Of a stretch of DNA of 64,000 bases, positions 5,184-63,999 are shown piece by piece. The stretch is from Parcubacteria group bacterium (GTDB lineage: Bacteria; Patescibacteriota; Minisyncoccia; Phycocordibacterales; UBA2135). Location of the stretch: the NCBI GenBank assembly GCA_016180525.1, contig JACPBB010000002.1:48824-112823 (forward strand), in the 5' to 3' direction. Under the pieces are notes generated by a model. It did not search any database and had not been told where the DNA came from. It worked only from the letters and a program-made list of their open reading frames with translations. Positions within the stretch are counted from its first letter, which is position 1. Every line of letters starts with the position of its first letter. A program made the position numbers and the translations under genes.

Positions 5184-5192
5184 CATACCCCA

Positions 5193-5225
5193 AAGCCCCC
5201 TCTTTTATGAGGTGGGCTTTTTTGC
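5193..5225 (+). terminator. intra-operon hairpin + T-run (attenuator-like) between prkA and yeaH
   Basis: AAGCCCCCTC...GGTGGGCTT stem followed by TTTTTTG. Confidence 0.4.
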
Positions 5226-5267
5226 TACACTCTAACATAGAGTATCCTTGAAAGACGGAGAATATAG

Positions 5268-5804: not shown

Positions 5805-6597
5805 ACAAGAAACGGGAAAATCTGAACTGCACTGTTACGAAGCATTGAAGCGCACAGACGGCCGTTTTGCCGACGCGCTTGAATTGCTCAACGCAGGAAA
5901 AATTGTGCTGACAGACGAAAGTCACGTTTCTGTTGATCCATTCCCGATTCTTCACCATGAAGATTATCGATATCACAAAATAGAAGAAGATGTTACAAAA
6001 GAATCTCAGGCTGTGGTCATTGCGATTATGGACGTTTCCGCGTCAATGACTCCTCTCAAAAAATATTTCGCTCGCACAATGATCTTCTGGCTTGTAAATT
6101 TCCTACGGCAAATATATAAACGAGTTGACATCCGTTTTATCGCCCATGATACCGAGGCACGAATCGTCGATGAAGAAAATTTCTTCAGAGTTGGAGAAAG
6201 CGGCGGAACACACTGTTACGCCGGATATGAACTCGCAAACTCACTCATAGAGACTGATTATCCGATAAGCCAATGGAATGTGTATGTATGGCACTTCTCT
6301 GACGGAGAAGATGGAAACACAGCACGTTCTATGGAAGAGGCACGGAGGCTTTTTGAGCGAAAGATTAATATGTTCGGCTATGGGGAAATATGTCCTGAAA
6401 AAGAATATTGGCCACCTGAACTTCTAAAACAATTTATTAAGACCTTTGATCTCAAAGAAGTTAAAGAAGAAAAAGATTTCACGGTTCATGTAAGTTTTGA
6501 CGAAAAATATCCGTTCTTGGGTGTCGCGATGCAGGAAAAAAAACATATCTGGCAAGCCCTTAAGGCGTTTCTCAAGCGAGATAGGTGGTCGTCATGA
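5770..6597 (+). CDS. yeaH: YeaH/YhbH (DUF444) family protein, C-terminal vWA-like part (frame +1; open from 5743)
   Basis: VVIAIMDVSASM metal-ion-dependent adhesion motif and the conserved C-terminus of YeaH. It overlaps the upstream ORF, consistent with a 1-nt indel in the A8 tract at 5748-5755. Confidence 0.6.
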   Translation: MKRFWSFLQALKQETGKSELHCYEALKRTDGRFADALELLNAGKIVLTDESHVSVDPFPILHHEDYRYHKIEEDVTKESQAVVIAIMDVSASMTPLKKYFARTMIFWLVNFLRQIYKRVDIRFIAHDTEARIVDEENFFRVGESGGTHCYAGYELANSLIETDYPISQWNVYVWHFSDGEDGNTARSMEEARRLFERKINMFGYGEICPEKEYWPPELLKQFIKTFDLKEVKEEKDFTVHVSFDEKYPFLGVAMQEKKHIWQALKAFLKRDRWSS

Positions 6598-10892: not shown

Positions 10893-11044
10893 ATTTGAGT
10901 GTGGAGACAAAACTGAGTCCCGACGTTTTTGTCGGGACCCCGACCGCTTTGCGCGTCGGGGCTAAGCGTCCCCCACATTTGTCCATACTATACTTAACTA
11001 TACTAAAAATACAAATAAAAAAGGCGGGCGCAATGCGCCCGACC

Positions 11045-11570
11045 CGAGTTTGAACAATCTGTTTTTCATTATTCTCGCCTGAGCTGCCCAATAAGCAGTC
11101 GGCGGGTTTTTTCTTCCCAGGGTCCGTCTTTGTTAGGCTTACTGGTAGCCAACCTTGGCTTCGAGATAAGCCTTCAGGGTACGATATACGCACCCTCGTG
11201 AGTCCATCCACATCGAAACCTCCTGTGAAAAGTGGTGGAAAGAACGCACATGAGGCCTCGCCGCTATTTATAATGTAAAAACATATGTGTTAAGGGAGGC
11301 CTCATGCGCATTCTCTCGCCTCTATGAACCATATTCTAATTCTTAACTCCTATTATACACAAATATAAAATTTTGTCAAGTTTTCACTAAGGAGGTAGTT
11401 TTTAATCCTCTTGGGATAAAAATAAAGTCATCCCGATTTGTATTGAGACTCGTTTGTTTTTTACGCAGGATACTTGAATTAGGGCGAACCCACCGCGCCT
11501 TCGGCGCGGCAGAACCCCCGCCAAAAATGCAGGCGGCGAAGCCGCACCGCTGACAATTTCAAGTTTTTTT
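11045..11570 (+). ncRNA. rnpB: candidate RNase P RNA (rnpB), bacterial type with insertions; boundaries approximate
   Basis: In the correct order, between tRNA-Val and a GC-rich islet:
- P4 5' strand-like AGTCGGCGGG (about 11098).
- CR-II/III-like CTGTGAAAAGTGGTGGAAAGAACGCAC (about 11224-11249).
- A long P12-like hairpin CATGAGGCCTC...GAGGCCTCATG.
- A UUCG-capped hairpin immediately before GGCAGAACCCCCGCC, the P4 3' strand (about 11507).
- Possible P2 pairing CGCCTG/CAGGCG and terminal T8.
No ORF of 60 aa or more lies in 11212-11618. rnpA is present elsewhere in the window. Confidence 0.45.
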
Positions 11571-16138: not shown

Positions 16139-16311
16139 AGTATGTAGTATATCGCATCTTGCCTTGCCCGGTAGCGAGCCTTGCTCTGGTACTGGGGTAG
16201 TTTTGTATATATAACAATAATGAACCCTTAAAGATACAGGGTTGTTTGATACTTTATACTTGATATCAGAGCACTAAACACTCTTTTTGTGCTTTTAGTG
16301 CTCGACCGAGC

Positions 16312-16354
16312 ACATAATTTGCAAATTATGTGCTCGGGCTTTATACTTGATAAT
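16312..16354 (+). promoter_or_regulatory. 13-bp-arm inverted repeat (CGAGCACATAATTT/AAATTATGTGCTCG) fused to GGCTTTATACTT promoter-like element, abutting a start codon
   Basis: Near-identical architecture recurs at 45121-45165 upstream of pilB. TATACT lies about 10 nt before the ATG, consistent with a leaderless transcript. Confidence 0.45.
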
Positions 16355-16600
16355 ATGCCTTCATTAGAATTATTTTTTGAGCAAAATTTGTGGGTGCTGG
16401 TAGTTGCAATGCTCTGGGTTTTGCCGTGGAAAGGCTATGCCCTCTGGAGCGCCGCGCAACTGCGCCACAAATGGTGGTTCATTATTTTGCTCGTGGTAAA
16501 CACACTTGCAATTTTGGACATTATCTACATCTTTGCTATCGCCAAAAAAGGTAGCGCGCTTTTTGGAAAGAAAGATAGAGTTTCATCTCAAAACGAGTAA
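16355..16600 (+). CDS. small two-TM membrane protein (81 aa)
   Basis: ATG immediately follows the promoter-like motif. Two hydrophobic helices. A tRNA and terminator follow. Confidence 0.5.
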   Translation: MPSLELFFEQNLWVLVVAMLWVLPWKGYALWSAAQLRHKWWFIILLVVNTLAILDIIYIFAIAKKGSALFGKKDRVSSQNE

Positions 16601-24175: not shown

Positions 24176-25666
24176 ATGAAAGAGTTTGATGTGGAAGTTA
24201 CCACAAACGTTGTGGAATATTTAAAACAAAGACATTTTCGTCCATATAAGCGAAGCATTTTAAAGTTATGCCTAAAAATGCTTGAAAAATACACGGGAGA
24301 GAATATTACTATACCCGTCTCTCGAGAGCTTCAATTACTTGGAGGAACATCGGTTTATCTTTGGAATTCAATAGAGACGCTCTACGCACTGCAGTCTTTG
24401 GGTATCGTTTCGCATTTCTCAAAAAATATGCACTACCCAGACGAGCCGCGTCTTCACGGATATAGCGCGGCATATTCAACCTCAGCAAATCGTTCACTAA
24501 GTAGAGCAAGCGGGGTTGATTTCTTTGACAAAAAAAAGGCTTTCTTCCGAATGCTTGGCGAATCAGTTGAGCGGCATTTGTGGTCTTGCACAGATTTTTT
24601 TTCAAGAAATCAAATAATGAAACCTTATAAAGAAATTAAAAATAAATCATTGAATATATTTTTACTTGCCGGATTCACGAAAGAACAAAAAAAACAATAT
24701 AGAGAGCTCCAGCTTACCGAAAATACACCACTTGCGTGGATTCCCGCCACATCACTTGTAAGTGAAAAGAAAATATGGTGTCCAACACAACTATTGAGCG
24801 TCCGTTATTTTAGAGAAAATGTGAGAACGCCAAAGAGACCCGCGAAACCAGAGCCAATGCTGCGGTGGTGTGTTACCACAGGTCTTGCAACGGGAAAAAC
24901 ACTAGAGGAAGCAATCGTTGCTGGGATATTGGAGGTAATAGAAAGAGACGCATTTATGATTACCTTTTTAAATAAACTCTCTCCTCCACTCATAGATTTG
25001 GAATATGTCGCAAGCCAAGACAAAGACATAGATACTATTTTGAAAAAATTTAAACGATACAATCTTGAAGTATATATGATCGCGCTTCCCACTGATTTTC
25101 CTGTACACGTTGTGTTGAGCCTCGTTATTGACCCATCGGGACGAGGCCCGGCTACAAGTGTGGGAGCAAGTGCTGATTTTGATTTAAAAAGATGCATCCT
25201 TGACGCATTATCTGAATCTCTCTCAGTAAGATACAATATAAAAAATAAATACAAGGATCCGATTGATTTGCAACATATTGGAAGAGAAGAGAGAATATTA
25301 TATTGGGCAAAAGAAGAAAACGTGCCTGGTCTTGAATTTTTAACAAAAGGGAAAAAAAATAAAGTTGAGTTAAATAAACAACATGTTTCGCAAAACTCAG
25401 AGATTCGTCATGACAAAAAACAACTTGATACACTTAGAGTAGAATTTAAAAAACAAAATCAAGAAGTATGTTTTGTAGAGCTTTCCTCAAAAGAAACCAG
25501 AAAACTTGGCTTTAGAACGGTTTTTGTGGTTGCTCCGGAAATGCAGCCAATGCACCTTGATGAATCAATCCCCTATTTTGGTGGCAAGCGCCTCAAGGAA
25601 GTACCTGAGAAACTGGGATACAAACCAGCGAAAGAATTAAATAAGGAGCCACATCCCTTTCCTTAA
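24176..25666 (+). CDS. YcaO domain cyclodehydratase (TOMM D-protein-like) with about 100-aa N-terminal extension and C-terminal PxPxP
   Basis: FFRMLGESVERH and GLATGKTLEEAIVAGILEVIERDAF YcaO signatures. The C-terminus ends EPHPFP (PxPxP motif). Confidence 0.85.
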   Translation: MKEFDVEVTTNVVEYLKQRHFRPYKRSILKLCLKMLEKYTGENITIPVSRELQLLGGTSVYLWNSIETLYALQSLGIVSHFSKNMHYPDEPRLHGYSAAYSTSANRSLSRASGVDFFDKKKAFFRMLGESVERHLWSCTDFFSRNQIMKPYKEIKNKSLNIFLLAGFTKEQKKQYRELQLTENTPLAWIPATSLVSEKKIWCPTQLLSVRYFRENVRTPKRPAKPEPMLRWCVTTGLATGKTLEEAIVAGILEVIERDAFMITFLNKLSPPLIDLEYVASQDKDIDTILKKFKRYNLEVYMIALPTDFPVHVVLSLVIDPSGRGPATSVGASADFDLKRCILDALSESLSVRYNIKNKYKDPIDLQHIGREERILYWAKEENVPGLEFLTKGKKNKVELNKQHVSQNSEIRHDKKQLDTLRVEFKKQNQEVCFVELSSKETRKLGFRTVFVVAPEMQPMHLDESIPYFGGKRLKEVPEKLGYKPAKELNKEPHPFP

Positions 25667-25668
25667 TC

Positions 25669-26415
25669 ATGCTTTCTAAATTATTTCACAAAAAAATCAC
25701 AAATGAACGACCATATACACCAAGAGACCCAAAAGATTGGCCGATTTCATGGCGTACCGTGTATTTTAAAGAATACCCAAGATTTGATAGAGTAATGCTG
25801 CCAATAAATTTTTTAGAGCTGAAAAATTTAAAAGATGTTTTAGAAAAAAGACATTCTACCAGAACGTTTGACATAAAAAAAGAAATAACTCTACAGGAAC
25901 TCTCAACAATGCTTTATTATTCAGCCGGCATAAAAGGGACGCCTGGCAAATATAGAGACAAGCCGCAAATGGAAAAAAATAAATCAAGGCGATTCTATCC
26001 GTCCGGCGGAGAGCGATATCCGCTTGAAGTGTACGTCGCAATAAAGCGAATTTCCGAGATAAACTCTGGAATATACCACTATAACTTGCCCAATCACTCT
26101 CTTGAACAATTGTCAGATAAAGAATGTTTAAGCGAGTTTTATGAAGCACTTGGCGAACCATGGGCAAAAGACGCTGCGGTAGTTTTTATTATAACTGCTG
26201 TCTGGGATAGAAATTTTATAAAATATCAAGACTTCGGTTACAACATAATTCTTACCGAGACGGGACATATGGCTCAAAATCTAATTTTACTTTCAGAGTC
26301 TTTGGATCTACACTATTGTCCGTTTATTGGATTTGATAATAAAAAAATAAATAAAATTTTAGACATTGATGAGGAAAATGAGTCTTCTTTATATATGATT
26401 GCAGGAGGAAAATAG
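25669..26415 (+). CDS. SagB-type dehydrogenase (nitroreductase superfamily, TOMM B-protein-like)
   Basis: RHSTRTF and PSGGERYPLEVY motifs. Its start lies 3 nt after the ycaO stop. Confidence 0.8.
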   Translation: MLSKLFHKKITNERPYTPRDPKDWPISWRTVYFKEYPRFDRVMLPINFLELKNLKDVLEKRHSTRTFDIKKEITLQELSTMLYYSAGIKGTPGKYRDKPQMEKNKSRRFYPSGGERYPLEVYVAIKRISEINSGIYHYNLPNHSLEQLSDKECLSEFYEALGEPWAKDAAVVFIITAVWDRNFIKYQDFGYNIILTETGHMAQNLILLSESLDLHYCPFIGFDNKKINKILDIDEENESSLYMIAGGK

Positions 26416-26457
26416 TATTATTGATTCTTTAGAGAAATTTTATGTGCTATTAATTGT

Positions 26458-27483
26458 ATGTTTTTTATAAAAAACCTTTCACAAAACAACACAGAGCATG
26501 AAACCGTATTACAGGATCAGCTCTTGGCAACGCACTACTTAATTACTCTCACACACACAACACTTGAGCGTCTGGGCCTTTTTGATGTCTTGAGAAAAAA
26601 AACAGAGCCAGCAGCAATTGATGAGCTATCAAAAATAATAAAAGTAAGAACTGACATTTTAGAGGCTTGTATTAATTTCTTGTGGTCTACGACCAATTAT
26701 CTAGAAAAAAACGGGCAAAAAATTATTTTGAAAAATAATCCGCCAAAATGGTTTTGGATAGCAACGTATAAACCTGTATTTGACAACTTAGAAAGTTTAT
26801 TAAAAGGAACAAAAAAATATGGAAATGATGTTGTTCGTGATGGATATTATTTACAAAAAATGTCTATTACAATCAATAATCCGGTTGAAAATTATATAGT
26901 CCAACAGCTTCAAGAAATTAAAGAAAAAAGTATCCTTGTCGATTTGGGCTGCGGCCCAGGGACACTTCTTTCACGGGTAAGCGCTGCAAATCCATTAATA
27001 GAGGGGCTTGGCATAGATGTTGACCCAATCATAACCGACATTGCTCAAAAAAACGTAATGCGTTCGCGTCGTCCAATAAAAATTATCACGGCAGACGTGA
27101 CAAAAATACATTTCTGGAAAAAACACATTCCATCAAATGTAAATCTTATATTCTCAGCAAATTCCATACTCCATGAACTCTTACGAGACGGAGAAGAAAG
27201 GTTCATCTCTTTTTTAAAAACACTCAAGGGCGCGTTTCCGGGCTCTCGATTTTTTGTAACAGAAATTAACGCGCTTTCGCCTCAAGAAATAAAAAATATG
27301 CGGAGCAACGATTACAAATTTTTTATGGCAATGTTTATGTTCACCCATCCGCTTACTGAACAGGGATTGCCACGATCCAAAAAAGAATGGCTTTCTTTTT
27401 TTAAAAAAAGCCAGTGGTCCGTCATGCGAACAGAACAACCTAAAAATAATGACGCGCGAATTATCTATGACTGTCTCTTATGA
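26458..27483 (+). CDS. class I SAM-dependent methyltransferase (O-MT-like with N-terminal dimerisation region)
   Basis: ILVDLGCGPGTLLS motif I. Confidence 0.75.
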   Translation: MFFIKNLSQNNTEHETVLQDQLLATHYLITLTHTTLERLGLFDVLRKKTEPAAIDELSKIIKVRTDILEACINFLWSTTNYLEKNGQKIILKNNPPKWFWIATYKPVFDNLESLLKGTKKYGNDVVRDGYYLQKMSITINNPVENYIVQQLQEIKEKSILVDLGCGPGTLLSRVSAANPLIEGLGIDVDPIITDIAQKNVMRSRRPIKIITADVTKIHFWKKHIPSNVNLIFSANSILHELLRDGEERFISFLKTLKGAFPGSRFFVTEINALSPQEIKNMRSNDYKFFMAMFMFTHPLTEQGLPRSKKEWLSFFKKSQWSVMRTEQPKNNDARIIYDCLL

Positions 27484-36518: not shown

Positions 36519-36797
36519 ATGATTTTAAATTTTTTGTCTATGTGGTATTACGTATATATACTTCGTTCATTAAAGGATAAAAAATTTTATATAGGATATA
36601 CTACTAATTTAAAATCACGATTTGAGGCACATTCAAAAGGGCATGTAGAGTCAACAAAGAAAAGAGGTCAACTAAAAATTGTATATTCCGAAGCGTGCCT
36701 CAATAAAAAAGACGCGTTGCATCGTGAAAAATATTTTAAAACACATCATGGTAAACAATTTTTATATAAACGCCTCAAATCGTATTTAACAGGGTGA
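36519..36797 (+). CDS. GIY-YIG nuclease superfamily protein (YhbQ/UPF0213-like)
   Basis: YVYILRS...KFYIGYTTNLKSRFEAH matches the GIY-YIG motif. Confidence 0.8.
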   Translation: MILNFLSMWYYVYILRSLKDKKFYIGYTTNLKSRFEAHSKGHVESTKKRGQLKIVYSEACLNKKDALHREKYFKTHHGKQFLYKRLKSYLTG

Positions 36798-37716: not shown

Positions 37717-37723
37717 GAATTAG

Positions 37724-37782
37724 GCACTAGGCGTTAGAATTTAAATTTTCTAGAGCCTAACGCCTAATACCTAGAGCCTTTT
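37724..37782. repeat. TTAGGCG-heptamer palindromic intergenic element (convergent-gene terminator)
   Basis: aggcactaggcgttagaa...ttctagagcctaacgcctaatacctagagcc. The same element family occurs at 59355-59415, 61395-61440 and 62425-62520. Confidence 0.5.
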
Positions 37783-45000: not shown

Positions 45001-45120
45001 TGACCCCTCCTTTTTGGGCCGCATTGTGGGTGTCAAAACCCGCACAAAGTTTATATGAAGAGAGATTGTGGGTCAAGCTAACCCACCTTTATACCTTATA
45101 CAGAATACCGAAGCACCGAA

Positions 45121-45165
45121 CACATACTTTCAAAGTATGTGCTCTGGCTTTATACTTAAAGATAT
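45121..45165 (+). promoter_or_regulatory. 13-bp-arm inverted repeat (GAACACATACTTT/AAAGTATGTGCTC) fused to GGCTTTATACTT promoter-like element abutting the pilB start
   Basis: Near-identical to 16312-16354. Confidence 0.45.
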
Positions 45166-46845
45166 ATGGTTACATTTGACGAGAACAGGCAAAACAAACA
45201 ACTGGAGATACTGCGCCGCTCTGAAGAAGAGGACGTGGTAAAAATACTTTCTCAAAAATACGGAATTCCCTATCTTGACCTTGGAAGTATTCCTATAAAC
45301 ACGGACGCACTCCGCCTTATTCCCGAAGAAGAGTCGCGAGAAGCAGAGGCCGCCGGTTTTAAGCTTGTCGGCAAAAAAATTTTTGTGGCGGTTCTTTCTC
45401 CCAAAAAAGAGAGAACTCTCATGGCTTTAAAAGAACTTGAGCGCAAGGGATATGAGCCGCTCCTTAATCTTGTCTCAAGACAAGGCCTTGAGCGCGCTTG
45501 GGAGCGTTATAAAGAAATTTCTTTTGCCGAAGAGACGGAGGCGGGGGTTCTTGAAATTTCAAGTCAAAAACTCTCTTCGTTTGTTGAAGAGCTCGGGACA
45601 ATAGAGGACCTTAAAAAACTTATTACCGAAACGATGGGGTCATCCACAAAATATCATGTATCCCACATTCTTGAAATTCTAATTGCTGGCGGCATGGCAA
45701 CTGAAGCTTCCGATATTCACATTGAACCGGAGGAGACTTCCGCAAAATTGCGGCTACGGCTTGATGGAGTGCTTCAAGATTTAATGTTTATTGAAAGCAA
45801 AATATATACCCTCATCAACTCACGCATTAAATTGCTCTCGGGACTCAAGCTTAATGTTAAAGATGAGGCTCAGGACGGCAGATTTAGCATAAAAATTAAG
45901 GATAACGATATAGAAATCAGAACTTCAATAATTCCCGGCGCATATGGAGAGTCAATTGTAATGCGTCTGTTAAATCCTAAAAAACTTTCTGTTTCTTTTG
46001 AAAATCTTGGGATAGAGCCGCGGCTTCTTTCAATTATTGAGCGTGAGCTTGAGAAACCAAACGGAATGATATTAAATACCGGCCCGACGGGATCTGGAAA
46101 AACAACCGCGCTCTACGCTTTTTTAAAAAAAGTGCAAACTCCTGGAATAAAAATTATCACCATTGAGGATCCTGTTGAATATCATCTGCCGGGAATCACG
46201 CAAACCCAGGTTGACGAGGAGGGAGAGTATACATTCGCGCAAGGAGTCCGCTCCGTGCTCCGACAAGACCCTGATGTCATCATGATTGGAGAAATCAGGG
46301 ACAAAGATACCGCACGAACCGCGATTCACGCGGCTTTGACCGGACATTTGGTTCTCGCAACGCTTCACACAAACAACGCTGCCGGAACAATTCCGCGTCT
46401 TATTGATCTGGGAGTTAACAGTAAAGTTATTGGCTCCGCGCTTACGGCGACAATGGCGCAGAGACTCGTGAGAAAAATATGCCTTGAGTGCAAGAAAAAA
46501 CGGGCACCCACCGCCGCTGAAAAGAAAATTATTCAAACTATTATTTCCCGTATGCCCGATATATATAAGCAAGAAATGCCAAAAACATACTCACTGTGGG
46601 AGGGAGAGAAGTGTCTCAAGTGCCACAACACCGGCTATAAAGGAAGAATTGGTATTTTTGAAGCAATACTGATGGATGAACAGGTAGAGAAAGTAACAAC
46701 CCAAAATCCAAGCGAGCGTGAAATTACAAAAGCTGCCGAATCCCAAAATATACTGTCAATGCGGGAAGACGGACTGTTAAAAGTTATGCGGGGCATAACT
46801 TCTCTTTCTGAATTAGAACGAGTGGTTGGACTTGAAGGAGACTGA
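45166..46845 (+). CDS. pilB: type II/IV secretion system ATPase (PilB/GspE family)
   Basis: Walker A GPTGSGKTT. Asp/His boxes. C-terminal CxxC...CxxC zinc motif (CLECK...CLKCHNTG). Confidence 0.85.
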   Translation: MVTFDENRQNKQLEILRRSEEEDVVKILSQKYGIPYLDLGSIPINTDALRLIPEEESREAEAAGFKLVGKKIFVAVLSPKKERTLMALKELERKGYEPLLNLVSRQGLERAWERYKEISFAEETEAGVLEISSQKLSSFVEELGTIEDLKKLITETMGSSTKYHVSHILEILIAGGMATEASDIHIEPEETSAKLRLRLDGVLQDLMFIESKIYTLINSRIKLLSGLKLNVKDEAQDGRFSIKIKDNDIEIRTSIIPGAYGESIVMRLLNPKKLSVSFENLGIEPRLLSIIERELEKPNGMILNTGPTGSGKTTALYAFLKKVQTPGIKIITIEDPVEYHLPGITQTQVDEEGEYTFAQGVRSVLRQDPDVIMIGEIRDKDTARTAIHAALTGHLVLATLHTNNAAGTIPRLIDLGVNSKVIGSALTATMAQRLVRKICLECKKKRAPTAAEKKIIQTIISRMPDIYKQEMPKTYSLWEGEKCLKCHNTGYKGRIGIFEAILMDEQVEKVTTQNPSEREITKAAESQNILSMREDGLLKVMRGITSLSELERVVGLEGD

Positions 46846-46852
46846 GAAAAAC

Positions 46853-46881
46853 AAAAATCCGACACATGTCGGGTTTTTGTT
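46853..46881 (+). terminator. rho-independent terminator after pilB
   Basis: AAATCCGACACATGTCGGGTTT followed by TTTGTTT. Confidence 0.6.
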
Positions 46882-47245
46882 TGCTATACCGTTACACCTC
46901 AAATTTACATATTTTCAAGATTGCGGAGTATTAAAAAATAGAGAAAATGAATTCCAAAGATTCATATGTTTACATAGGTCGGTACGACACCTTTATTCTC
47001 TAAGCAATCCTTTTGAGTCAGAAAACAAAAAAGACAGGCAAATCGCTAAGGGGAACTCCAGCATACACACCGAAGCGGGCACCCAGAGTATCCTCGCAGA
47101 ATACCCTAAAGCCCGAAAGGCCCGATTGCCTAGAGAATAAAAGGTCCTACCGTGTTAAAGAGACTTTATAAGAGTCGCTTGATATAATGAGTATGCAAAT
47201 CAAAAAGCATTAACTACTAATACATGCTAGCATAAATAATAAAAA

Positions 47246-48262: not shown

Positions 48263-48472
48263 CGAGTGTAGTGAGTATATTTTCTTAACCGAGAGCACTC
48301 AACGTATTGAGTGCTTGGTGCTCAAAAAATGTGGTCGCTTCGCTCCCTATTTATTTGGCATGTCTGGTCATAACAAATGGAGTAAAATTAAACACCCTAG
48401 TATCACAGCGCGAAGCGCTGGCTACGGGGCGGGAAGTGGTAATACAGACTTATCAGAGTAAAATTACATACG

Positions 48473-53708: not shown

Positions 53709-53969
53709 TTATCGAATATCGGAAATTTGTTTTTTTTCAATTTGTTCACGCATTCTTTCTAGAAGAATCGGCTTTTTTATGTGCATCTCGCTTTTTATAG
53801 CAGGAGAAGCTGCAAGGTAAATGGTGTTATGTTCAACTCGTATGTCTTTCGGCTCTATGTCTATGTTTATTTCTTCTTTAACAATAGTTATAAAAATTTT
53901 TTTAAGAAAATCATCTGGAGGAGTTATGTGTTTATACTTTTCAAGATATGAGCCGATATTAAAATCCAT
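53709..53969 (-). CDS. small DUF721/DciA-like protein (tentative)
   Basis: 86-aa ORF immediately downstream of dnaN. The family call is weak. Confidence 0.35.
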   Translation of the reverse strand: MDFNIGSYLEKYKHITPPDDFLKKIFITIVKEEINIDIEPKDIRVEHNTIYLAASPAIKSEMHIKKPILLERMREQIEKKQISDIR

Positions 53970-54038
53970 ATGTTAAGTATTTCGTATCTCGTATTTAGTA
54001 TTAATAAAATTAAATAACTGTATACCAGATACTAAATA

Positions 54039-55136
54039 CTACTTATTGAGCGGCATCACGAGGTACATGAATGATTTGTCCCCCACTCCTCGTATGACAA
54101 GCGGGCGAGCTTCGCCGCTAAATTGAAAGACAACGCTGTCTTTTGGTATTGAAGCAAAACATTCAATCAAATATCTCTGATTAAAACTCAAAGAAAGTTT
54201 TTCTCCGGAAAGAGCTCCTTCTATATTCGCCACATGCTCTCCAACATCCGCATTTTGGGAATGAACTGTAAACTCTTTTCCTTTAGGATCAACTGAGAAA
54301 TCAACCTGATTTAATTTATCTGAAAATATATTGGATATTTTTAGGGCATTTATCATATCTTCTTTTAGTATCGTTGCTTCTGATTTAAATTCTTTGGGAA
54401 TAATCTGTTGATAATCCGGAAAGACGCCGTCAATAATGCGGGAAGTTATATACATATTTTCAGTCACAAAAGAAATTTGATTTTTATCAAAATGAACTTC
54501 AACATCTCCAGAAACTTCGTCAAGTATTCGTATTATTTCCAATATATTTTTTAACGGGATAAGCACCGGAGAAAATTGTTCTCCATGGGAAACAGATAAT
54601 TTTTTTTCAGCAAGACGAAACGAGTCGGTCGCGACTAGCGTAACTGTGTCAGAGTCTCCAAAAATATAAACGCTTGATATTTCAGGTTTTATATCGGATA
54701 GTGAGGCACTGTGAGAAACTGATTTAAGTCCCGAAACAAATTTATGCGAATCAATAATAAAAGGATTTTTATTTTTTATATGGGGTAATGTCGGAAAATC
54801 TTCATATGGGTAACTTTTAATAACCGTTGATATATTTTTTGTTGAAACTGAAAGATTATTATTTTTAAGCTTCAATGAAACCGTCTTGTCATGCATATTT
54901 GATAGCAGATTATTAAGTACTCCACCGGGAATTGCGGTTACCCCTTCTTCTTCTACTTTTGCAGGAACTATAATTTCAACTCCTAAATCAAGATTCGTTG
55001 CCCGTATACGCACCATTTGTCCTTTAGCGACAAAAAGTAAAGAACTCAAAATAGGCAATGTAAGATTTTTACCGGTTACTTTTTCTGCAATACTGACAGC
55101 ATTTTTTATTTTTTCTTTTACACATTCTATTCTCAT
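54039..55136 (-). CDS. dnaN: DNA polymerase III subunit beta (sliding clamp)
   Basis: Three-domain clamp length. Position next to dnaA. Confidence 0.9.
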   Translation of the reverse strand: MRIECVKEKIKNAVSIAEKVTGKNLTLPILSSLLFVAKGQMVRIRATNLDLGVEIIVPAKVEEEGVTAIPGGVLNNLLSNMHDKTVSLKLKNNNLSVSTKNISTVIKSYPYEDFPTLPHIKNKNPFIIDSHKFVSGLKSVSHSASLSDIKPEISSVYIFGDSDTVTLVATDSFRLAEKKLSVSHGEQFSPVLIPLKNILEIIRILDEVSGDVEVHFDKNQISFVTENMYITSRIIDGVFPDYQQIIPKEFKSEATILKEDMINALKISNIFSDKLNQVDFSVDPKGKEFTVHSQNADVGEHVANIEGALSGEKLSLSFNQRYLIECFASIPKDSVVFQFSGEARPLVIRGVGDKSFMYLVMPLNK

Positions 55137-55440
55137 AAATAATCTATTTTAAAAAACTATACACCACTGTTTATAAAATATAATGTTTTGATTATAAATA
55201 TATAATGATGATTATAGTGTTGTTGATATGTTTATAAAACTTATATTGTCTTTAAATTCAAAGGTTTATTTGAAACTATAATTTTTAACATCGTGTTGAA
55301 AATTAAAATGAAATGTTTACATTTTTTTTATATCGGTAATTACAGAAATTATATCCATATCATGCACATGTTTTAATTCGATATTTCCACTCACTGTTCA
55401 CATTTTTATATAAGATGTAAACAGTGTTATAAACAATTCT
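55137..55440. promoter_or_regulatory. AT-rich dnaA-dnaN intergenic region with DnaA-box-like motifs (candidate oriC part)
   Basis: About 300 bp of very AT-rich DNA between dnaN and dnaA, with TGTTATAAACA/CTATACACC-like boxes. Confidence 0.35.
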
Positions 55441-56796
55441 TTAAAACATTGAACGAATTCTTTCAACCTCCTGAACGAGCATATTGTTTTCTTTTAGGTT
55501 GTTTCTGATTTTTTCACACGAATGTATAACGGTTGTGTGATCTCTTCCTCCCATTTTTTGTCCAATAGTTGGATAAGAAATATTAAAATCTTCCCGCAAA
55601 ATATACATAATTATCTGGCGAGGCTTAACAATTTCTTTACGCCTGGTTTTCTTATAAATATGATCTCGTTCTACATTGTAAAAATCAGAGACCACACGCA
55701 CCACATCATCAACGGAAAGCATTTTTTTAGGGCGTTCATTGTGTTTTATAAGAGACTTAATTTCTTGAATGGATAATTCTCTGTTTTTTAATTGAACTTG
55801 GCAGATAATCATATTTAATATTCCTTCTAATTCTCTGATACTGCTTTGCGTGGCAGAAGAAACATACTCAATAATTTCATCCGGCAATTCAAAATTTGCC
55901 TGCTTTGATTTTGATTTGAGGATAACCACTTTTGACTCAAAATCAGGCTCCATAATATCAACGATCATTCCCTGCCCAAGTCTAGATTTAAGGCGCTCCT
56001 CAAGTTCTGCGTAGTTGTAGTGTCTATCAGCGGAAAATATCATTTGTTTATTGTTGTTGTACAACGTATTAAACAAATGGAAAAATTCATCCTGTGTTCC
56101 GCCTTTTCCTTCAAAATAATGTATATCGTCCATTATGAGCACGTCATATTTACGGTATTTTTCCTTAAAAATACTTATTTTATTCATTTGCACTGAGTTT
56201 ATATAGTCAAGATAAAACTTTTCGGCAGTGAGATAATACACCTTTTTATTTTCATGAGCCTGTTTTATGCCATTCCCGACAGCTTGCATAAGATGTGTTT
56301 TACCAAGGCCAGTTTTCCCATAAATAAATAAGGGATTATAGGCATCGCCTGGCTTTTTCATGACCGATTGAGCAGCTGCATAGGCAATCTCGTTAAAGGG
56401 GCCTACCACAAAAGACTCAAAACCATATCGAGGGTTTAAATTATCTTCTTTATTTATATAAAGGTCTTTAAGAGGCAGTTCTCCGGCATAGGCTGGAGCT
56501 TTTTCCTCTAATTGTACGGCCTCTTTTACCTCTCGTGGCTCATTTTTTGTGATGATATACTCAATACTCCGCACGCCCTCGTTTAAATTCCGCAGAGAGC
56601 GCAGTATAGACTTATGATACTTATTGGAAAGCCACTCTCGCGCGAATCCATTGGGAACACCCAAAAAAATGATTCCATTTTCCTGCTTTACAATATAGGT
56701 GTTTTTAAACCATGTACTAAAATTTGCTTTGGAAACGCCTATCTCGAGGTCGCTGAGTACATTTTCCCAAAGTTGTTTGTTGTCCATAGTGAGCAC
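55441..56796 (-). CDS. dnaA: chromosomal replication initiator protein DnaA
   Basis: Walker A GKTGLGKTHL. AAA+ motifs. C-terminal DNA-binding domain (GGRDHTTV). Confidence 0.9.
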   Translation of the reverse strand: MLTMDNKQLWENVLSDLEIGVSKANFSTWFKNTYIVKQENGIIFLGVPNGFAREWLSNKYHKSILRSLRNLNEGVRSIEYIITKNEPREVKEAVQLEEKAPAYAGELPLKDLYINKEDNLNPRYGFESFVVGPFNEIAYAAAQSVMKKPGDAYNPLFIYGKTGLGKTHLMQAVGNGIKQAHENKKVYYLTAEKFYLDYINSVQMNKISIFKEKYRKYDVLIMDDIHYFEGKGGTQDEFFHLFNTLYNNNKQMIFSADRHYNYAELEERLKSRLGQGMIVDIMEPDFESKVVILKSKSKQANFELPDEIIEYVSSATQSSIRELEGILNMIICQVQLKNRELSIQEIKSLIKHNERPKKMLSVDDVVRVVSDFYNVERDHIYKKTRRKEIVKPRQIIMYILREDFNISYPTIGQKMGGRDHTTVIHSCEKIRNNLKENNMLVQEVERIRSMF

Positions 56797-57080
56797 GTTT
56801 TAAAGAGATTCTTATTTATTATTTATTAATTATATATGACTTGAAATTACTGCAAACTTGTTAAATTGGTTGCAGTGTGTTGATAATATGTGGAAAATGG
56901 TGATAAAAAAATTTGACTTTTAAATTTTTTGATAGAAATTAAAACAGGGCGTATTTTATAAATAAATCAAAAAAATTTTGATGCATTGATGCGCTCGTAT
57001 ATTAAATTTTTTTAATGCGAACCTTGTCCAAGGCGGGCGGGGGTTTACTAACATCACCTTTTGGTATACACTACCTGTTA

Positions 57081-57218
57081 ATGTCTAAAACATATCAACC
57101 CAAGAGGAAAAAAAGAAAAACAACGCATGGTTTTCTTGTTCGAAGAAAAACTGCCGGCGGAAGAAATATATTGAAGCGAAGAATGAGAAAAGGAAGGAGA
57201 CGTCTAACTGTTAAGTGA
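57081..57218 (+). CDS. rpmH: 50S ribosomal protein L34
   Basis: [29 protein letters not shown] matches L34. Confidence 0.8.
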
Positions 57219-57320
57219 ATATAACACGAAATGTTCGAAAAACATTCGAAATCTATGAAAATATAATGTTTTTAATTTCATAATTTCGCATATGATTTTT
57301 TAGTTCCGCATTATTGTTTT

Positions 57321-57671
57321 GTGCTAAAAAAAAATCAAAAAATAAAACGGAAAGAATTTCTTGACGTTATGGCGCGAGGAAAAATATTTCACTCCCAGCA
57401 CCTCTCTTTGAGGGTTTCTAAAAAAGAAACTCAAAAAAATAATTCTCCCAAAATTTCTTTTGTTGTATCCGCCAAAGTCGCGCGAAAAGCAGTCGATAGA
57501 AATAAATTAAAACGAAGAGGATATATCATTGTTCGCGCGTTGCTCAAAAACATAAAGCAAAATTATTTTTTTGCTTTTTTCTTTAAAAAAGATTCTACTA
57601 CGCTTTTATTTGAAGAAATAAAAAAAGAAATTATTTTTTTATTAAGGCGTGCGGATGTTTTGTATGACTAA
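57321..57671 (+). CDS. rnpA: ribonuclease P protein component
   Basis: Basic protein directly downstream of rpmH. RnpA-like KLKRR motif. Confidence 0.8.
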   Translation: MLKKNQKIKRKEFLDVMARGKIFHSQHLSLRVSKKETQKNNSPKISFVVSAKVARKAVDRNKLKRRGYIIVRALLKNIKQNYFFAFFFKKDSTTLLFEEIKKEIIFLLRRADVLYD

Positions 57672-57888
57672 AAAAATTGCAACATTTTTAATAACTTTTT
57701 ATCAAAAATTTTTTTCTCCCGACACAGGAATTACTGGAAGGAGAAATATTTGCGTTCTTTACCCAACTTGTTCTGAATATGCCAAAATCGCCATTGAAAA
57801 ATATGGGTTTATTAAGGGCGTAGTAAAATCAGTAGCACGCATTTTTCGGTGTCATCCGTGGCAGAAAAATCATATAGATGTACCGTAA
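57649..57888 (+). CDS. yidD: membrane protein insertion efficiency factor YidD
   Basis: YQKFFSP...CxxxPTCSEYA...GxxxRxxRCHPW motif. Confidence 0.8.
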   Translation: MRMFCMTKKIATFLITFYQKFFSPDTGITGRRNICVLYPTCSEYAKIAIEKYGFIKGVVKSVARIFRCHPWQKNHIDVP

Positions 57889-58011
57889 AACATATAACGT
57901 AAAACGCAAAATGTGGATTATAAAACCTGAAGTATAAATTGCAAAAATTCTTGAGTTATACGCCTTACGTTATGTGTTGCGCGTATTGTGTAAATCCCGT
58001 ACAATACGAGG

Positions 58012-58776
58012 ATGATTGCCGATATTTTTAATACGATTCTCTATGAACCCCTCTTAAACGGGTTGATTTTTTTAGTGGGCGTTATTCCTTATGGAGATGT
58101 CGGATTTGCCGTCATAATTCTTACGCTTTTGGTAAAAATTATTCTCTTCCCCCTTTCTCATAAATCAGTTAAAACACAGCGGAAAATGAAAGAGGTTGAG
58201 CCTGAAATTAAAAAAATAAAAGAAAAATATAGCAAAGACAAACAAGAACAGGCAAAAAAGGTAATGGAACTATACAAACAGCACAGCCTTAATCCTTTTT
58301 CTGGATGTTTATTTTTTGCCATACAGATGCCTATCATTATTGCTCTCTATTGGGTTTTCTGGAAAGGACTTACAAACGGCATCAACGCGGATCTTTTGTA
58401 TTCATTCATAACAGTTCCTGAATCAGTGCACTTTAACTTCTTGGGGTTTATCGATATGACCGGGCGTAGTTACTTTTTGGCGGCGTTTGCGGGCATCTCT
58501 CAATATATTCAACTCCAACTCTCTCTTCCTGCAACTCCGGTGTCATCGCTTAAGGCGGGGGGCTCGTTTAAAGATGAATTTGCAAGAAATTTTACGTTTC
58601 AGATGAGGTACGTGTTTCCTGTCTTTGTGTTTATAATTTCATATACGATTTCTTCCGCAGTTGCCTTATATTGGGCAGTATCAAACATCTTCATGATAGG
58701 GCATGAGCTTTTGGTGCGGCGGAAAGCAAGGGCTATCGCCAGCAATCCGGATACTCCGAATAAAATATCCGAATAA
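58012..58776 (+). CDS. yidC: membrane protein insertase YidC (short form)
   Basis: Five-TM core with conserved YidC helices. Operon position. Confidence 0.85.
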   Translation: MIADIFNTILYEPLLNGLIFLVGVIPYGDVGFAVIILTLLVKIILFPLSHKSVKTQRKMKEVEPEIKKIKEKYSKDKQEQAKKVMELYKQHSLNPFSGCLFFAIQMPIIIALYWVFWKGLTNGINADLLYSFITVPESVHFNFLGFIDMTGRSYFLAAFAGISQYIQLQLSLPATPVSSLKAGGSFKDEFARNFTFQMRYVFPVFVFIISYTISSAVALYWAVSNIFMIGHELLVRRKARAIASNPDTPNKISE

Positions 58777-58866
58777 CTCGAATAGAGTTGCTACCGCTTG
58801 ATTTTATCTCTCAATCAGGTATATTCGGAGTATTCGGATACTCATTCATATATTCTGATTATTATC

Positions 58867-59358
58867 ATGGAAACCGCATTTATACAAAAAACAATAGAAG
58901 ACATATTGAGGTGCCTTTCTGTTGACGCCACGTTTTCGGGCATTGTTGAAATAAACAACGGAGATATTATAAAATTTTCAATTAAAACAAAAGAGCCCTA
59001 TATTTTGATAGGAGATGAGGGTAAAGTACTCATGGCTTTTAATCATTTGATTAAAAAGATTTTTGAGACTCAGTCCGTGAAACAAAATTTTAAACCACTT
59101 AATTTTATTGTGGATATTAATGATTATCAGGAGCAGAAAATTGAAGATATAAAAAATAAAGCTCGCATGATGGCGGAGCGAGCGCGCTTTTTTAAAAACA
59201 ATGTTGAGCTACCTGCCATGAATCCGTATGAACGAATGATTGTGCATTCGTTTTTCACGAATACGCCCGATATAGAAACTGAATCAACCGGCACAGGCCT
59301 CGAGCGCCGCGTCGTGATTAAATATGTAGGAACAACAGAAGAGGCTCTAGGAAACTAG
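58867..59358 (+). CDS. Jag/KhpB-like RNA-binding protein (KH/R3H domain)
   Basis: C-terminal R3H-like MIVHSFF...GTGLERRVVIKYV. Position after yidC. Confidence 0.7.
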   Translation: METAFIQKTIEDILRCLSVDATFSGIVEINNGDIIKFSIKTKEPYILIGDEGKVLMAFNHLIKKIFETQSVKQNFKPLNFIVDINDYQEQKIEDIKNKARMMAERARFFKNNVELPAMNPYERMIVHSFFTNTPDIETESTGTGLERRVVIKYVGTTEEALGN

Positions 59359-60648: not shown

Positions 60649-61392
60649 TTATTGTTTGACTTCACACACATAAGTGCCTGCAAAGTTTTGAGCAGTTCTT
60701 AAATATGAATAAGAAAATTCCCCTCCCTGTTTACTGCATACAATTCCAGCGGCCTTAACTTGTTCACCACTTACGTTTCCGGTTACGACTGCTTCAAAGT
60801 ATTTTCCTGTTTTGGGATCAAAATTAGTATATTTTAAAACATTTTCTTTTCTCCCGAGTAAGTCTTTGCCCGTAACGCTTGTTCCTGTTTTTGCGGCATT
60901 TTCTGCCTCTTTGACTGATGGTAGCGGAACTGTGGTTACATTTCTTGTCTCCGGAGAAAATTTAAATACCACCAAATCGGGGTTTATAGTTTCAAGCAAA
61001 AGATACCCGCCAAACGCTATGGCAAGTCCGAAAATCGCCATAGTAATTTTATTTTTCGCGTCCTCTTTTTTCGTAAACGCGTCGCTTCCCATGTATTCTA
61101 TCCCAGCAATAACAATAACAAGGACCGCAAGAACAATAGCAAGGCCGATACCCAAGAAAATAAGATTTTCAAGATACCCGATTGCGTTTGTTGTACCAAT
61201 TCCTTGCTGTCCCGGAAGTGAGGTAAGCGAAGTGTAGGAAACCTGAGCCACTTGCTCGTCACTTGCCACAGCAGCGGCATTTTGCTGGCCAGATTCATTC
61301 CATGCATATAGGCCGCCAATCATAATAAGCATTGTGGCGGTAACAATAAGAGGATGTTTTTTTTCTTGGACGAGTTTTAAAATTTTTTCCAT
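60649..61392 (-). CDS. hypothetical membrane protein with TrbC/VirB2-like two-helix pilin-like segment (tentative)
   Basis: Two long hydrophobic helices separated by a short polar loop (LIFLGIGLAIVLAVLVIVIAGIEY...ITMAIFGLAIAFGGYLLL). Adjacent to a VirB4-like ATPase. Confidence 0.45.
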   Translation of the reverse strand: MEKILKLVQEKKHPLIVTATMLIMIGGLYAWNESGQQNAAAVASDEQVAQVSYTSLTSLPGQQGIGTTNAIGYLENLIFLGIGLAIVLAVLVIVIAGIEYMGSDAFTKKEDAKNKITMAIFGLAIAFGGYLLLETINPDLVVFKFSPETRNVTTVPLPSVKEAENAAKTGTSVTGKDLLGRKENVLKYTNFDPKTGKYFEAVVTGNVSGEQVKAAGIVCSKQGGEFSYSYLRTAQNFAGTYVCEVKQ

Positions 61393-61436
61393 ATAATTTT
61401 TTTCTAAATCCTAATACCCAATATCTAGAGCCTAAT

Positions 61437-62424: not shown

Positions 62425-62517
62425 ATTTAGGCGCTAGGCCTTAGGCGTTAGGCGTTAGGCGTTAGGATTTAATTTATTTTTCTAGAGCCTAACGCCTAAT
62501 GCCTAAAGCCTTATTAA
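62425..62517. repeat. (TTAGGCG)n / (CGCCTAA)n inverted tandem-heptamer palindromic element
   Basis: ttaggcgctaggccttaggcgttaggcgttaggcgttagg...ctagagcctaacgcctaatgcctaaagcc. Confidence 0.55.
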
Positions 62518-63999
62518 TTATACCCCACTCTGTCTGTTTTGAGGCAACTCAACTCTGTTCGGTGCAGACCCGCCTTGACTCGTCGGCGAGGCAGGCGTCT
62601 CACCCTGTAAAATTTCTTTGTCTCGCTTTGCTTTCTTAATGGCTAAAATTTCAGATGGTTTTGAGGTTATGAGCTGGTCTTCAGTGTAGGATGCGATTAC
62701 TTTGAGGGCTACGTGTTTTAGCCCTGCAAAAAATATCCCCTCTCCCACATCGGACTCAAGCAAGAGATATTTTTCCTCATCGGTTAAGTTGAACGTTTTC
62801 TGAATCAGGTCAATTGCCGTCGGCGACTGTTTAAAAAGAATTTGAATCGCAGAGTTTGTAAGCATCGCGTTTCCATATGAAGAACGGAGAAAATCCCCCA
62901 CATCTTGGGTAATAGTTGCAAGCCCAAGATAATATTTGCGGCCTCGTTTTGCCATACTGAAAAGAAACGAGGCCGTATCGTCTGCTTTCATCATCCACCA
63001 CGCCTCATCAATCACTAGCAGTCGTTTTTTAAGGTTTTTTCGTACTGCGTTCCAAATAAAATGAGTAATAATGTACATTGCAACCGGCTTTAGCTCGTCC
63101 TCCATGTCGCGAACGGAAAAGACGACGAATTTTTTATTTATATCAACGTTGGTCGGTCTGTTGATAAACCCGGACCATGTGCCCTTGGTATATTTGGAAA
63201 GTTTTTGTGATAGTGTTCCGCCCCCCTCCATGCCGGCAAGCACAAGCTCAAAATCAGAAAGGAGCGGCGGCTCTATATTACTAAAATTAGAATCGGGCGT
63301 AATGTCTTTTAGGGCATATGTTTCGGAAATCGCACGGTCTATAATAGCGTCTTCCTCTGGAGTGAGCCCGTTAAGCATTACTCTGAAGAGACCAACGAGA
63401 TTTACAATATTTGAACGCAGCACATCTGCCGGTGACTCATCTTCTCCGACTGGAGGCAAATCAAACGGATTAATATGGTGCTCGGAAGTGAGAGAAATAT
63501 TGAAATATCGTCCGTCTGCCGCTTCCGTCAGGTACTCATATTCTTTTTCCGGATCAATAACGATTACATCTGTGTCAAACATAAGGCTTCTCAGTATTTC
63601 AAGTTTAGTTGCATAAGATTTTCCTGCGCCGGAAGTCGCGAACATGACAGAGTTGTAGTTTTCCATTGAAAATCGGTCAAATAGAATTAAGCTTGAATTG
63701 TGGCGGTTTACTCCATAAAGGATTCCACGGTCAGAAGTAAGGTCAAATGACACAAACGGGAAGAAACTTGAAAGCGGAGAGGAATTGAGTTTGGAATGCG
63801 TTTTAAGCTGGTCGTCTGCTATGGGGAGCACGCTTTTGAACCCCTCTTCTTGCTGGAAGAGTGCTGGCCGGATATATATTAATTTTGATTCAAGTATTGA
63901 TTTAATTTCTGACTCTATTTTATCGAGCTCTTTTTCATTATCCGCGTATATACTGAGGTACAAGCCGACATCAAAGAGCTTTTCCCGCGCTTGCTGCAA
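62518..63999 (-). CDS. VirB4/TrbE/TraC-like type IV secretion ATPase, C-terminal portion (N-terminus beyond window end)
   Basis: Walker A FATSGAGKSY, a DEAW Walker B region, and a conserved C-terminal TQ...D region. The ORF is open to the window edge. Confidence 0.75.
   Translation of the reverse strand: MQQAREKLFDVGLYLSIYADNEKELDKIESEIKSILESKLIYIRPALFQQEEGFKSVLPIADDQLKTHSKLNSSPLSSFFPFVSFDLTSDRGILYGVNRHNSSLILFDRFSMENYNSVMFATSGAGKSYATKLEILRSLMFDTDVIVIDPEKEYEYLTEAADGRYFNISLTSEHHINPFDLPPVGEDESPADVLRSNIVNLVGLFRVMLNGLTPEEDAIIDRAISETYALKDITPDSNFSNIEPPLLSDFELVLAGMEGGGTLSQKLSKYTKGTWSGFINRPTNVDINKKFVVFSVRDMEDELKPVAMYIITHFIWNAVRKNLKKRLLVIDEAWWMMKADDTASFLFSMAKRGRKYYLGLATITQDVGDFLRSSYGNAMLTNSAIQILFKQSPTAIDLIQKTFNLTDEEKYLLLESDVGEGIFFAGLKHVALKVIASYTEDQLITSKPSEILAIKKAKRDKEILQGETPASPTSQGGSAPNRVELPQNRQSGV

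Follow-up and report, generated by a model that had tools for sequence, protein, structure and literature searches.

What does it mean when two promoters in one genome carry nearly the same palindrome? The question is raised by a stretch of 64,000 nucleotides (nt) from a Parcubacteria group bacterium (a metagenome-assembled genome of the Parcubacteria/Paceibacteria; GenBank assembly GCA_016180525.1, contig JACPBB010000002.1, positions 48,824 to 112,823; hereafter the window), where a short palindrome with GAGCAC-type arms lies immediately 5' of pilB, the gene for an ATPase of the type IV pilus machinery, to which attachment and DNA uptake are ascribed in these organisms, and again 5' of a gene for a small DUF5652 membrane protein. 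An earlier note on this DNA had read the two as copies of a conserved operator-promoter module that places both genes under one regulator. Gene regulation in the Patescibacteria is almost unknown, and palindromes in promoters are easily mistaken for operators. We think it probable, while leaving considerable room for doubt, that the palindrome is a copy, lacking an open reading frame (ORF), of a small mobile hairpin repeat associated with GIY-YIG nuclease genes, and not an ancestral operator. Comparison with related genomes suggests that its arrival at the pilB promoter was most likely recent.

Two palindromes within core promoters

The copy in front of pilB (copy 2, or P2) has the core GAACACATACTTT-C-AAAGTATGTGCTC at 45118-45144, a 27-bp palindrome whose 13-nt arms pair with one mismatch around a centre of 1 nt. 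Imperfect outer pairs lengthen the dyad, to which no strand is assigned, to CCGAACACATACTTT-C-AAAGTATGTGCTCTG at 45116-45146. The earlier note's start at 45121 is 3 nt late, because the core spans 45118-45144. As DNA, P2 folds into a hairpin of -8.2 kcal/mol (z -5.1 against shuffles). Its core is followed by TGG, the box CTTTATACTT (45148-45157), AAAGATAT, and the pilB ATG at 45166-45168. According to a consensus scan, a -35-like TTCAAA (45129-45134, plus strand) forms the centre, or loop, of the palindrome, 16 nt 5' of a -10 TATACT (45151-45156, plus strand) that lies within this box, which orthologues retain, and 9 nt 5' of the ATG. The dyad thus overlaps the core promoter, centred on the -35-like hexamer, with the -10 placed 6 nt past the right arm, and the description of a module whose promoter directly abuts the pilB start stands.

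The coding sequence itself (45166-46845, plus strand; 559 aa; Pfam T2SSE, E 5e-115, plus MshEN) begins with an N-terminus conserved among 49 homologues and has no Shine-Dalgarno site; its mRNA is probably leaderless. A strong inverted repeat acting as an intrinsic terminator (46849-46882, plus strand) adjoins its 3' end, and ruvB is served by a promoter of its own; pilB is therefore monocistronic, and on the same two grounds a pilB-ruvB-yebC-ruvC operon was dropped. The roughly 290 nt between this terminator and the ruvB promoter (46890-47170) hold no convincing gene; a 104-aa ORF within them matches no Pfam family and is uncalled in L071. This interval has the short motifs CAGAATACC and ACCGAAGC in common with the DNA just 5' of copy 2.

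Copy 1 (P1b) is a perfect 32-bp palindrome, CCGAGCACATAATTTG/CAAATTATGTGCTCGG, at 16306-16337 (no strand; DNA fold -15.6 kcal/mol, z -7.5 against shuffles), followed by GCTTTATACTTGATAAT and then by the start codon (ATG at 16355) of the gene for an 81-aa DUF5652 protein (coding sequence 16355-16600). Here the -35-like hexamer at the palindrome's centre is TTGCAA (16319-16324), located by consensus scan 17 nt 5' of a -10 TATACT (16342-16347, plus strand) on which scan and orthologue alignment agree. The promoters predicted earlier for both genes are supported in that each has sigma-70-like hexamers at the correct spacing, from which promoter activity may be presumed.

Leaderless mRNAs appear to be common in this window, since a Shine-Dalgarno-like 4-mer is found at only 3 of 54 genes and TAnn[AC]T hexamers cluster 7 and 9 nt 5' of start codons (15 of 54 genes; peak range 7-9 nt). 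At DUF5652, pilB, and pilM alike, an inverted repeat is centred on the -35-like hexamer, and the ATG follows 7-9 nt after the -10. Elsewhere among relatives, tandem 7-nt CTACTTT repeats occur directly 5' of the TATACTT -10 boxes of pilB, ruvX, and DUF5652 (L075:1700-1770; L082:1950-2063), where they are possibly slippage-prone promoter spacers. A TGTCAAG motif is conserved about 25 nt 5' of the pilB -10 in many Nomurabacteria-type genomes (pilB loci L008-L049), and these loci also have two overlapping -10-like boxes (TTATACGATATAAT).

Orthologous promoters lack the palindrome. In the three related genomes compared for DUF5652 (L082, L084, and L088; DUF5652 orthologues of 89, 81, and 70% identity), the promoter reads TTGATA, 17 nt, TATACT, 7-8 nt, ATG; the -10/ATG core is kept, and the synteny of pilM-VTT-ruvX with DUF5652 is retained in all three. 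The window has an additional 72 nt (16268-16339, plus strand), which the alignment with these relatives locates exactly between GATATC and TTATACTT. This stretch comprises P1b and a neighbouring imperfect palindrome, GAGCAC...GTGCTC (P1a, 16269-16303), and the two together fold to -25.5 kcal/mol (z -9.4). Because of the 72 nt, the ancestral -35 TTGATA (16246-16251, plus strand), which stands 17 nt before TATACT in the relatives, is now 90 nt from the -10. At the level of sequence, the alignment establishes an insertion at the DUF5652 promoter.

At pilB, the orthologues with 85, 84, and 79% amino acid identity (L075, L076, and L001) likewise keep the TATAC box and the ATG and are free of the palindrome. 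A PilB-based scan of genome contigs returned 51 loci, none of which carries it, and 49 more distant pilB loci are likewise without it. The region is identical in four contigs of the same strain. Promoter alignment and upstream sequences delimit a probable 46-nt insert holding P2 (AGAATACCGAAGCAC...CTCTGG, 45102-45147, plus strand); it sits between two TATAC boxes that adjoin in the orthologue of 85% identity. Alignment thus demonstrates that the palindrome is absent from the orthologous promoters of both genes in the six nearest relatives, and the word "conserved" cannot be kept for the supposed operator.

The resemblance of the two copies is far above chance. A global alignment of 16303-16357 with 45113-45168 has 47 identical columns of 58, and the local alignment score is 35 versus at most 19 in 20 shuffles. 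The base-for-base match reported earlier, with only a few substitutions, is therefore real, except that three small indels belong to it as well. Since pilB (L075) and DUF5652 (L082) share the core ACTTTATACTTAACATATG in sister genomes, much of the match 3' of the palindrome is an older, lineage-typical promoter core. A search across the 64-kb window found no palindrome copies beyond the two.

Within the palindromes, the arms are conserved and the centres vary in sequence and length: copy 1 has the dinucleotide GC, a relative described below (L058) has TG, and copy 2 has a single C, so that the spacing of the half-sites is not fixed. At arm position 12, copy 1 has A on both sides and copy 2 has C on both. 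A rough estimate gives a chance probability of about 0.09 for one mirrored change among four arm substitutions, and the mirrored substitution is only suggestive. Together with the variable centre it would suit a hairpin, or a palindrome whose symmetry is maintained by templated repair, better than the two sites of one rigid dimer.

If a hairpin is what is preserved, it could act in RNA. Transcripts from the distal TATAC boxes would carry the stem-loop, causing termination or attenuation before the leaderless start or offering an RNase III site, and in the gene-carrying form described below the arms would pair around the nuclease mRNA. Copy 1 was indeed flagged as terminator-like, with a 14-bp stem followed by GCTTTATACT; a second TATAC box is present 5' at both loci, and a compensatory change combined with a variable loop fits a structure under selection. 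We nevertheless regard this explanation as improbable. Copy 2 fails the terminator scan and copy 1 is borderline, so that neither qualifies as an intrinsic terminator; the distal TATAC boxes have poor -35 elements; and both regions are divergent intergenic spaces, with no co-directional 5' gene to terminate.

The two copies could also be imagined as sites of a site-specific recombinase, dif/Xer-like (11-6-11) or invertase-like, flanking a 29-kb segment. The sequence GAGCACATAAT-TTGCAA-ATTATGTGCTC has the 11-6-11 layout, shares CATAAT/ATTATG with the Escherichia coli dif site, and occurs in direct order with its counterpart 28.8 kb away. We find this scarcely credible, however, as the centre is 5 nt long in copy 2 and symmetric in copy 1, the window encodes no recombinase, and dnaA, dnaN, rnpA, and yidC mark the window as an origin region rather than a terminus, with the copies 10-40 kb from dnaA/dnaN. 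The DUF5652 insert, at 72 nt, is not an island junction; its size and the origin-region setting were the grounds on which the dif/Xer and island-junction idea was dropped.

The same arms around a GIY-YIG gene and near recA

In one related species of Paceibacteria (L093/L094), the arms are separated by a 75-aa GIY-YIG ORF in the order ACCGAGCACATAATTTT, ATG...GIY-YIG...TAA, AATTATGTGCTCGGT. The arm ACCGAGCACATAATTTT runs straight into the ATG, and the TAA overlaps AAAATTATGTGCTCGGT. The arms that bracket this gene are 15-17 nt long, ACCGAGCACATAATTT(T) and its complement. The gap between FtsK and HTH_25 genes that holds the unit measures 362 nt, versus 33-71 nt in three relatives without it (L091, L095, and L097). 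Since the arms in this species are split around the gene, the palindromes of the window can be understood as the same two arms joined, with no gene between them. Sequence identity establishes the match of the arms; the GIY-YIG unit and the 72-nt DUF5652 insert are each present or absent at orthologous sites, and a gene-carrying partner has the same terminal inverted repeats, as expected of a miniature inverted-repeat transposable element (MITE).

The joined form also occurs away from promoters. A metagenome scan with a strict 21-base palindrome pattern returned 19 loci, of which 16 represent a single unrelated site, in a gut organism of 23% GC, and 2 one marine site, all taken as chance. The sole true relative with joined arms was L058, CCGAGCACATAATTT-TG-AAATTATGTGCTCGGG, which matches about 10 positions beyond the search pattern; outside the centre, the joined arms of L058/L090 are identical at 33 of 33 nt. 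They lie 235 nt 5' of recA, with no -10 box alongside and 225 nt from the recA promoter, which places this copy demonstrably outside a promoter. Their setting is a 362-nt, highly structured element (z -6.9), a hairpin mosaic that is missing from relatives with 92-93% RecA identity, where only 60-104 nt separate the HTH_25 gene from recA. A second copy of the element has an unrelated 18-nt hairpin at the palindrome's place. The proteins of L058 are singletons, and Rfam gave only tRNAs in the window and no match in L058. Scans of viral sequences for the joined and for the split arms yielded chance matches or none.

In L058 (52-326 and 1346-1707; also in L090), two direct copies, 81% identical, of a strongly folding element of about 290-360 nt flank recA, and these elements contain SRM-like CCCGC...GCGGG hairpins together with one swappable hairpin position.

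These findings bear directly on the claim that one regulator couples pilB to the membrane protein, and they undercut it: the same arms also bracket a GIY-YIG gene and occur outside a promoter. Nor are the two genes neighbours among relatives, DUF5652 never being found at a distance of 6 kb or less from pilB in 49 related pilB loci.

We propose that the full form of the repeat would consist of arms bracketing a 75-aa single-domain GIY-YIG gene from ATG to stop, and that the form in the window would be the same arms joined head to head without the gene. Copies probably landed in the core promoters of pilB and DUF5652 just 5' of a pre-existing CTTTATACTT -10 box, at DUF5652 moving the old -35 TTGATA some 70 nt off. 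The A/T-rich centres TTGCAA and TTCAAA, 16-17 nt from the -10, probably act as a replacement -35, so that the genes would stay expressed. The same placement in both promoters could result from two insertions, or from one that was copied across the flanking TATAC boxes. The modules would then be alike because the promoters already shared a -10/start core and received the same repeat at the same relative place. The replacement of the -35, the repeat's mode of spread, and any role of the nuclease are what we infer from this arrangement.

Several points weigh against such a history. The GIY-YIG gene has been seen between these arms in one species only, and the repeat is not abundant, given that the strict scan yielded a single other genome with the joined form and that about 635 kb of related loci contained no GAGCAC...GTGCTC hairpins besides that of L058; for the source genome, the copy count covers the 64-kb window. 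The 46-nt stretch around P2 is consistent with an insertion by an alignment that is short and ambiguous, and the DUF5652 promoter alignment has no clear target-site duplication for the GAGCAC family. GIY-YIG enzymes are not known to be transposases. Finally, both copies in the window occupy exactly the same promoter position, so that target preference, gene conversion via the shared TATAC boxes, or selection is needed, and selection for shared regulation as the cause would favour the earlier note's view.

That view, in its strongest form, is of a working operator. The dyad over the -35 would be bound by a dimeric protein, whether a transcription factor, the cognate GIY-YIG protein, or one derived from the latter, and pilB and DUF5652 would thereby be regulated together, perhaps after a mobile phase from which the repeat was later co-opted. 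Two promoters have a near-perfect dyad in the same relative place, with the -35 at its centre, a comparable dyad surrounds the -35 of pilM, and the joined form found elsewhere lies 5' of recA, which with pilB and pilM would make a plausible competence regulon. We judge an operator unlikely all the same, because the palindrome is absent at the orthologous promoters in the six nearest relatives, the two copies differ by 1 bp in how far apart their half-sites lie around an unconserved centre, and a symmetric double substitution is unexpected for two sites of one protein. Moreover, 225 nt separate the L058 copy from the recA promoter and no -10 adjoins it, the pilM dyad differs in arms and spacing, and Pfam recognized no DNA-binding regulator gene among the window ORFs of at least 70 aa, taken from a gene map that was assembled greedily and without overlaps. 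The boxes of LexA (a Cheo-box-like CGAACA is present in copy 2), CIRCE/HrcA, NrdR, Fur, and CRP were considered and set aside for misfits of spacing and orientation.

The palindrome could also have arisen where it stands. Templated inverted duplication of a half-site at pilB, followed by gene conversion to DUF5652, would make the match to the GIY-YIG arms unrelated. The pilB orthologue of 79% identity (L001) has ACACATATTCTC at the place of the window's left arm ACACATACTTTC, and the TATAC boxes flanking both promoters could guide conversion. The arms of 15-17 nt and their flanking bases are, however, identical in L093/L094 and in L058/L090, about 10 positions past the search pattern that chance would match roughly once in a million, and two further genomes already carry the same arms at unrelated loci; an origin in place is thus very improbable. 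An inserted repeat would account for these arms, and it is the reading we carry forward.

Related palindromes, nuclease genes, and neighbours in the window

The promoter of pilM contains a palindrome of a second family (14983/14985-15028, minus strand), with TATACCCCCACATCAAT...ATTAGTGTGGGGGTATA around a -35 TTCAAA. The order is TTCAAA, 17 nt, TATACT, with the -10 formed at the palindrome's gene-side end and the ATG 7 nt on. Arms of this family, TATACCCCCACA...TGTGGGGGTATA (TATACCCCCACA...TGTGGGGGTATAC), recur at a different promoter in a related genome (L088:5045-5091), where the palindrome's end forms the -10 of a DUF5673-gene orthologue. Another relative (L082) has a pilM promoter without the palindrome, in which GCTTATAC continues uninterrupted into TTA. 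From this comparison, the pilM-family palindrome looks inserted into a TATAC box; TATAC is duplicated there, though GTATAC is itself palindromic.

The window also has a small GIY-YIG gene of its own (36519-36797, plus strand; Pfam GIY-YIG, E 3.9e-15). The whole unit spans 36509-36797, and the gene is nested between 12-nt inverted arms, ACCCTGTTAAAT (36509-36520) and ATTTAACAGGGT (36784-36795), that differ from the GAGCAC arms; a direct repeat, (A)TGATTTTAA, follows each arm. The layout, a gene within a divided palindrome, is that of L093/L094, and together with the like behaviour of the pilM family it speaks for the mobile-repeat reading. Its product is 42% identical to the GIY-YIG protein of L093 (E 2e-11), and its nearest solved relative is UPF0213 protein BH0048 (1zg2, E 3e-6). 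An exact look-up of the protein returned no record. Compared with an Ssn-like protein from L091, the L093 and window proteins reach only E 1e-5 to 3e-8. Ssn-type GIY-YIG genes of 93-94 aa, flanked by NTS/SRM hairpins (GTCATTCCCGCGAAGGCGGGAATCCAG), do occur among relatives (L091:3780-4130; L097:4370-4760 and 11005-11275), and SRM hairpins also lie just 3' of recA in L097. The window contains no SRM, and its GAGCAC repeat is unlike the SRM/NTS consensus CGTCATTCCCGCGMAVGCGGGAATCYRG.

A GAGCAC-based hairpin between ruvB and yebC, CCGAGAGCACTCAACGTATTGAGTGCTTGGTGCTC (48292-48323, plus strand), is a possible but weak degenerate relative of the repeat, which brings the tally in the 64-kb window to two clear copies, P1a, and this candidate. 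Its AGCACTC-N8-GAGTGCT resembles both the CIRCE heat-shock operator (N9) and the GAGCAC base of the promoter palindromes.

Other parts of the window are recorded here for completeness. Positions 24176-32596 encode a YcaO cyclodehydratase, a nitroreductase-family protein, a methyltransferase, a DegT-type aminotransferase, a 1082-aa beta-propeller/AMMECR1 protein, and an Asp/Asn beta-hydroxylase, a set that may be a Patescibacterium peptide-modification cluster. PrkA, DUF444 (YeaH-like), and SpoVR genes occupy 3135-8105, the DUF444 gene being split into overlapping ORFs (5268-5804 and 5770-6597), maybe by a frameshift. The replication-origin neighbourhood at 53709-59358 comprises a DciA-like gene, dnaN, dnaA, a 524-nt gap (56797-57320), rnpA, yidD, yidC, and jag. 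Runs of 7-nt units (TTAGGCG / CCTAACG) form long intergenic inverted repeats at 37721-37773, 61393-61436, and 62436-62511; these repeats adjoin type IV secretion system (T4SS)-like genes, a TraG/VirB4-like P-loop gene (62518-63999) and a T4SS pilin-like gene (60649-61392).

Comparison with known systems

A promoter palindrome, as this case illustrates, can be a recent nuclease-associated hairpin insert that apparently rebuilt the promoter it interrupted, and regulons should not be inferred from two similar promoters in a single genome. The likeness to a classical repressor operator placed over a -35 is a dyad across the core promoter of two genes. In contrast to such an operator, the dyad is unconserved at orthologues, its centre varies in length, and the same sequence forms the inverted repeats of a nuclease gene and occurs away from promoters. 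A homing endonuclease interrupting its own site offers another parallel, as the GIY-YIG ORF lies at the exact centre of a sequence that is uninterrupted elsewhere (P1b, P2, and L058), as one would predict were the unbroken palindrome its target. However, it is the intact palindrome that is inserted here, at nonhomologous loci rather than in a conserved host gene, and no intron or intein is involved.

Mobile elements with inverted repeats come closer. REP/REPIN sequences and their RAYT partners (IS200/IS605-related) share the pattern of short extragenic palindromes as nonautonomous copies, with a single-copy nuclease gene between inverted repeats, and the hairpin mosaic of the L058 element recalls the clusters of BIMEs. 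Unlike REPs, the arms described here have no Y1 transposase beside them and no GTAG head, and they amount to 2-3 copies per 64 kb, placed within promoters rather than in 3' regions. The Correia elements of Neisseria are promoter-bearing MITEs of about 100-150 nt that insert beside genes, are variably present, and contribute promoter hexamers, altering or preserving the expression of the neighbouring gene. Elements of this type resemble the present repeat in being inverted-repeat elements, present or absent among close relatives, that contribute promoter hexamers. They differ in that the unit here is 27-32 nt with no clear TA-type target duplication, and in that the loop would give the -35 and the host the -10. 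The feature is not a demonstrable member of the REP/RAYT group or of the promoter-bearing MITEs, nor of the Ssn/NTS-SRM systems, which are its remaining point of comparison.

In the Ssn system, a single-domain GIY-YIG gene of about 75-95 aa is tied to a hairpin repeat of about 30 nt, and the repeat is also dispersed without the gene in the vicinity of genes for transformation and recombination (Chenal et al. 2025, Nat Commun 16:2388, PMC11893778). A small single-domain GIY-YIG gene is likewise physically tied to the repeat described here, in L093/L094 and, for these arms, not in the window; classic examples with flanking hairpins of the GTCATTCCCGCGAAGGCGGGAATCCAG type are found in the same Patescibacteria clade. 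On the other hand, the gene in our case divides a single palindrome, whose arms lie to its left and right, and does not stand between two full hairpins; the GAGCAC repeat has few copies and no similarity to the SRM consensus; and the nested nucleases look closer to the UPF0213/YhbQ type (1zg2, E 3e-6) than to a demonstrated member of cd10448.

It would be a bold step, and one we offer as speculation with little expectation that all of it is right, to see in the GAGCACATAATTT palindrome a new family of Patescibacteria hairpin repeats with a UPF0213-like GIY-YIG partner encoded in the hairpin loop. Its gene-less copies would serve leaderless promoters as portable -35/operator cassettes. With the Ssn/SRM hairpins that surround recA in the same clade, they would act as markers, and perhaps as controls, of genes for type IV pili and recombination, and a selfish pair of nuclease and repeat would in this way be tied to natural transformation among these ultra-small bacteria. 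Should the association with GIY-YIG genes prove general, it would be an example of mobile DNA rewiring type IV pilus promoters, and it would extend the idea of the Ssn hairpin repeat to another nuclease subgroup and to a layout in which the gene sits inside the hairpin.

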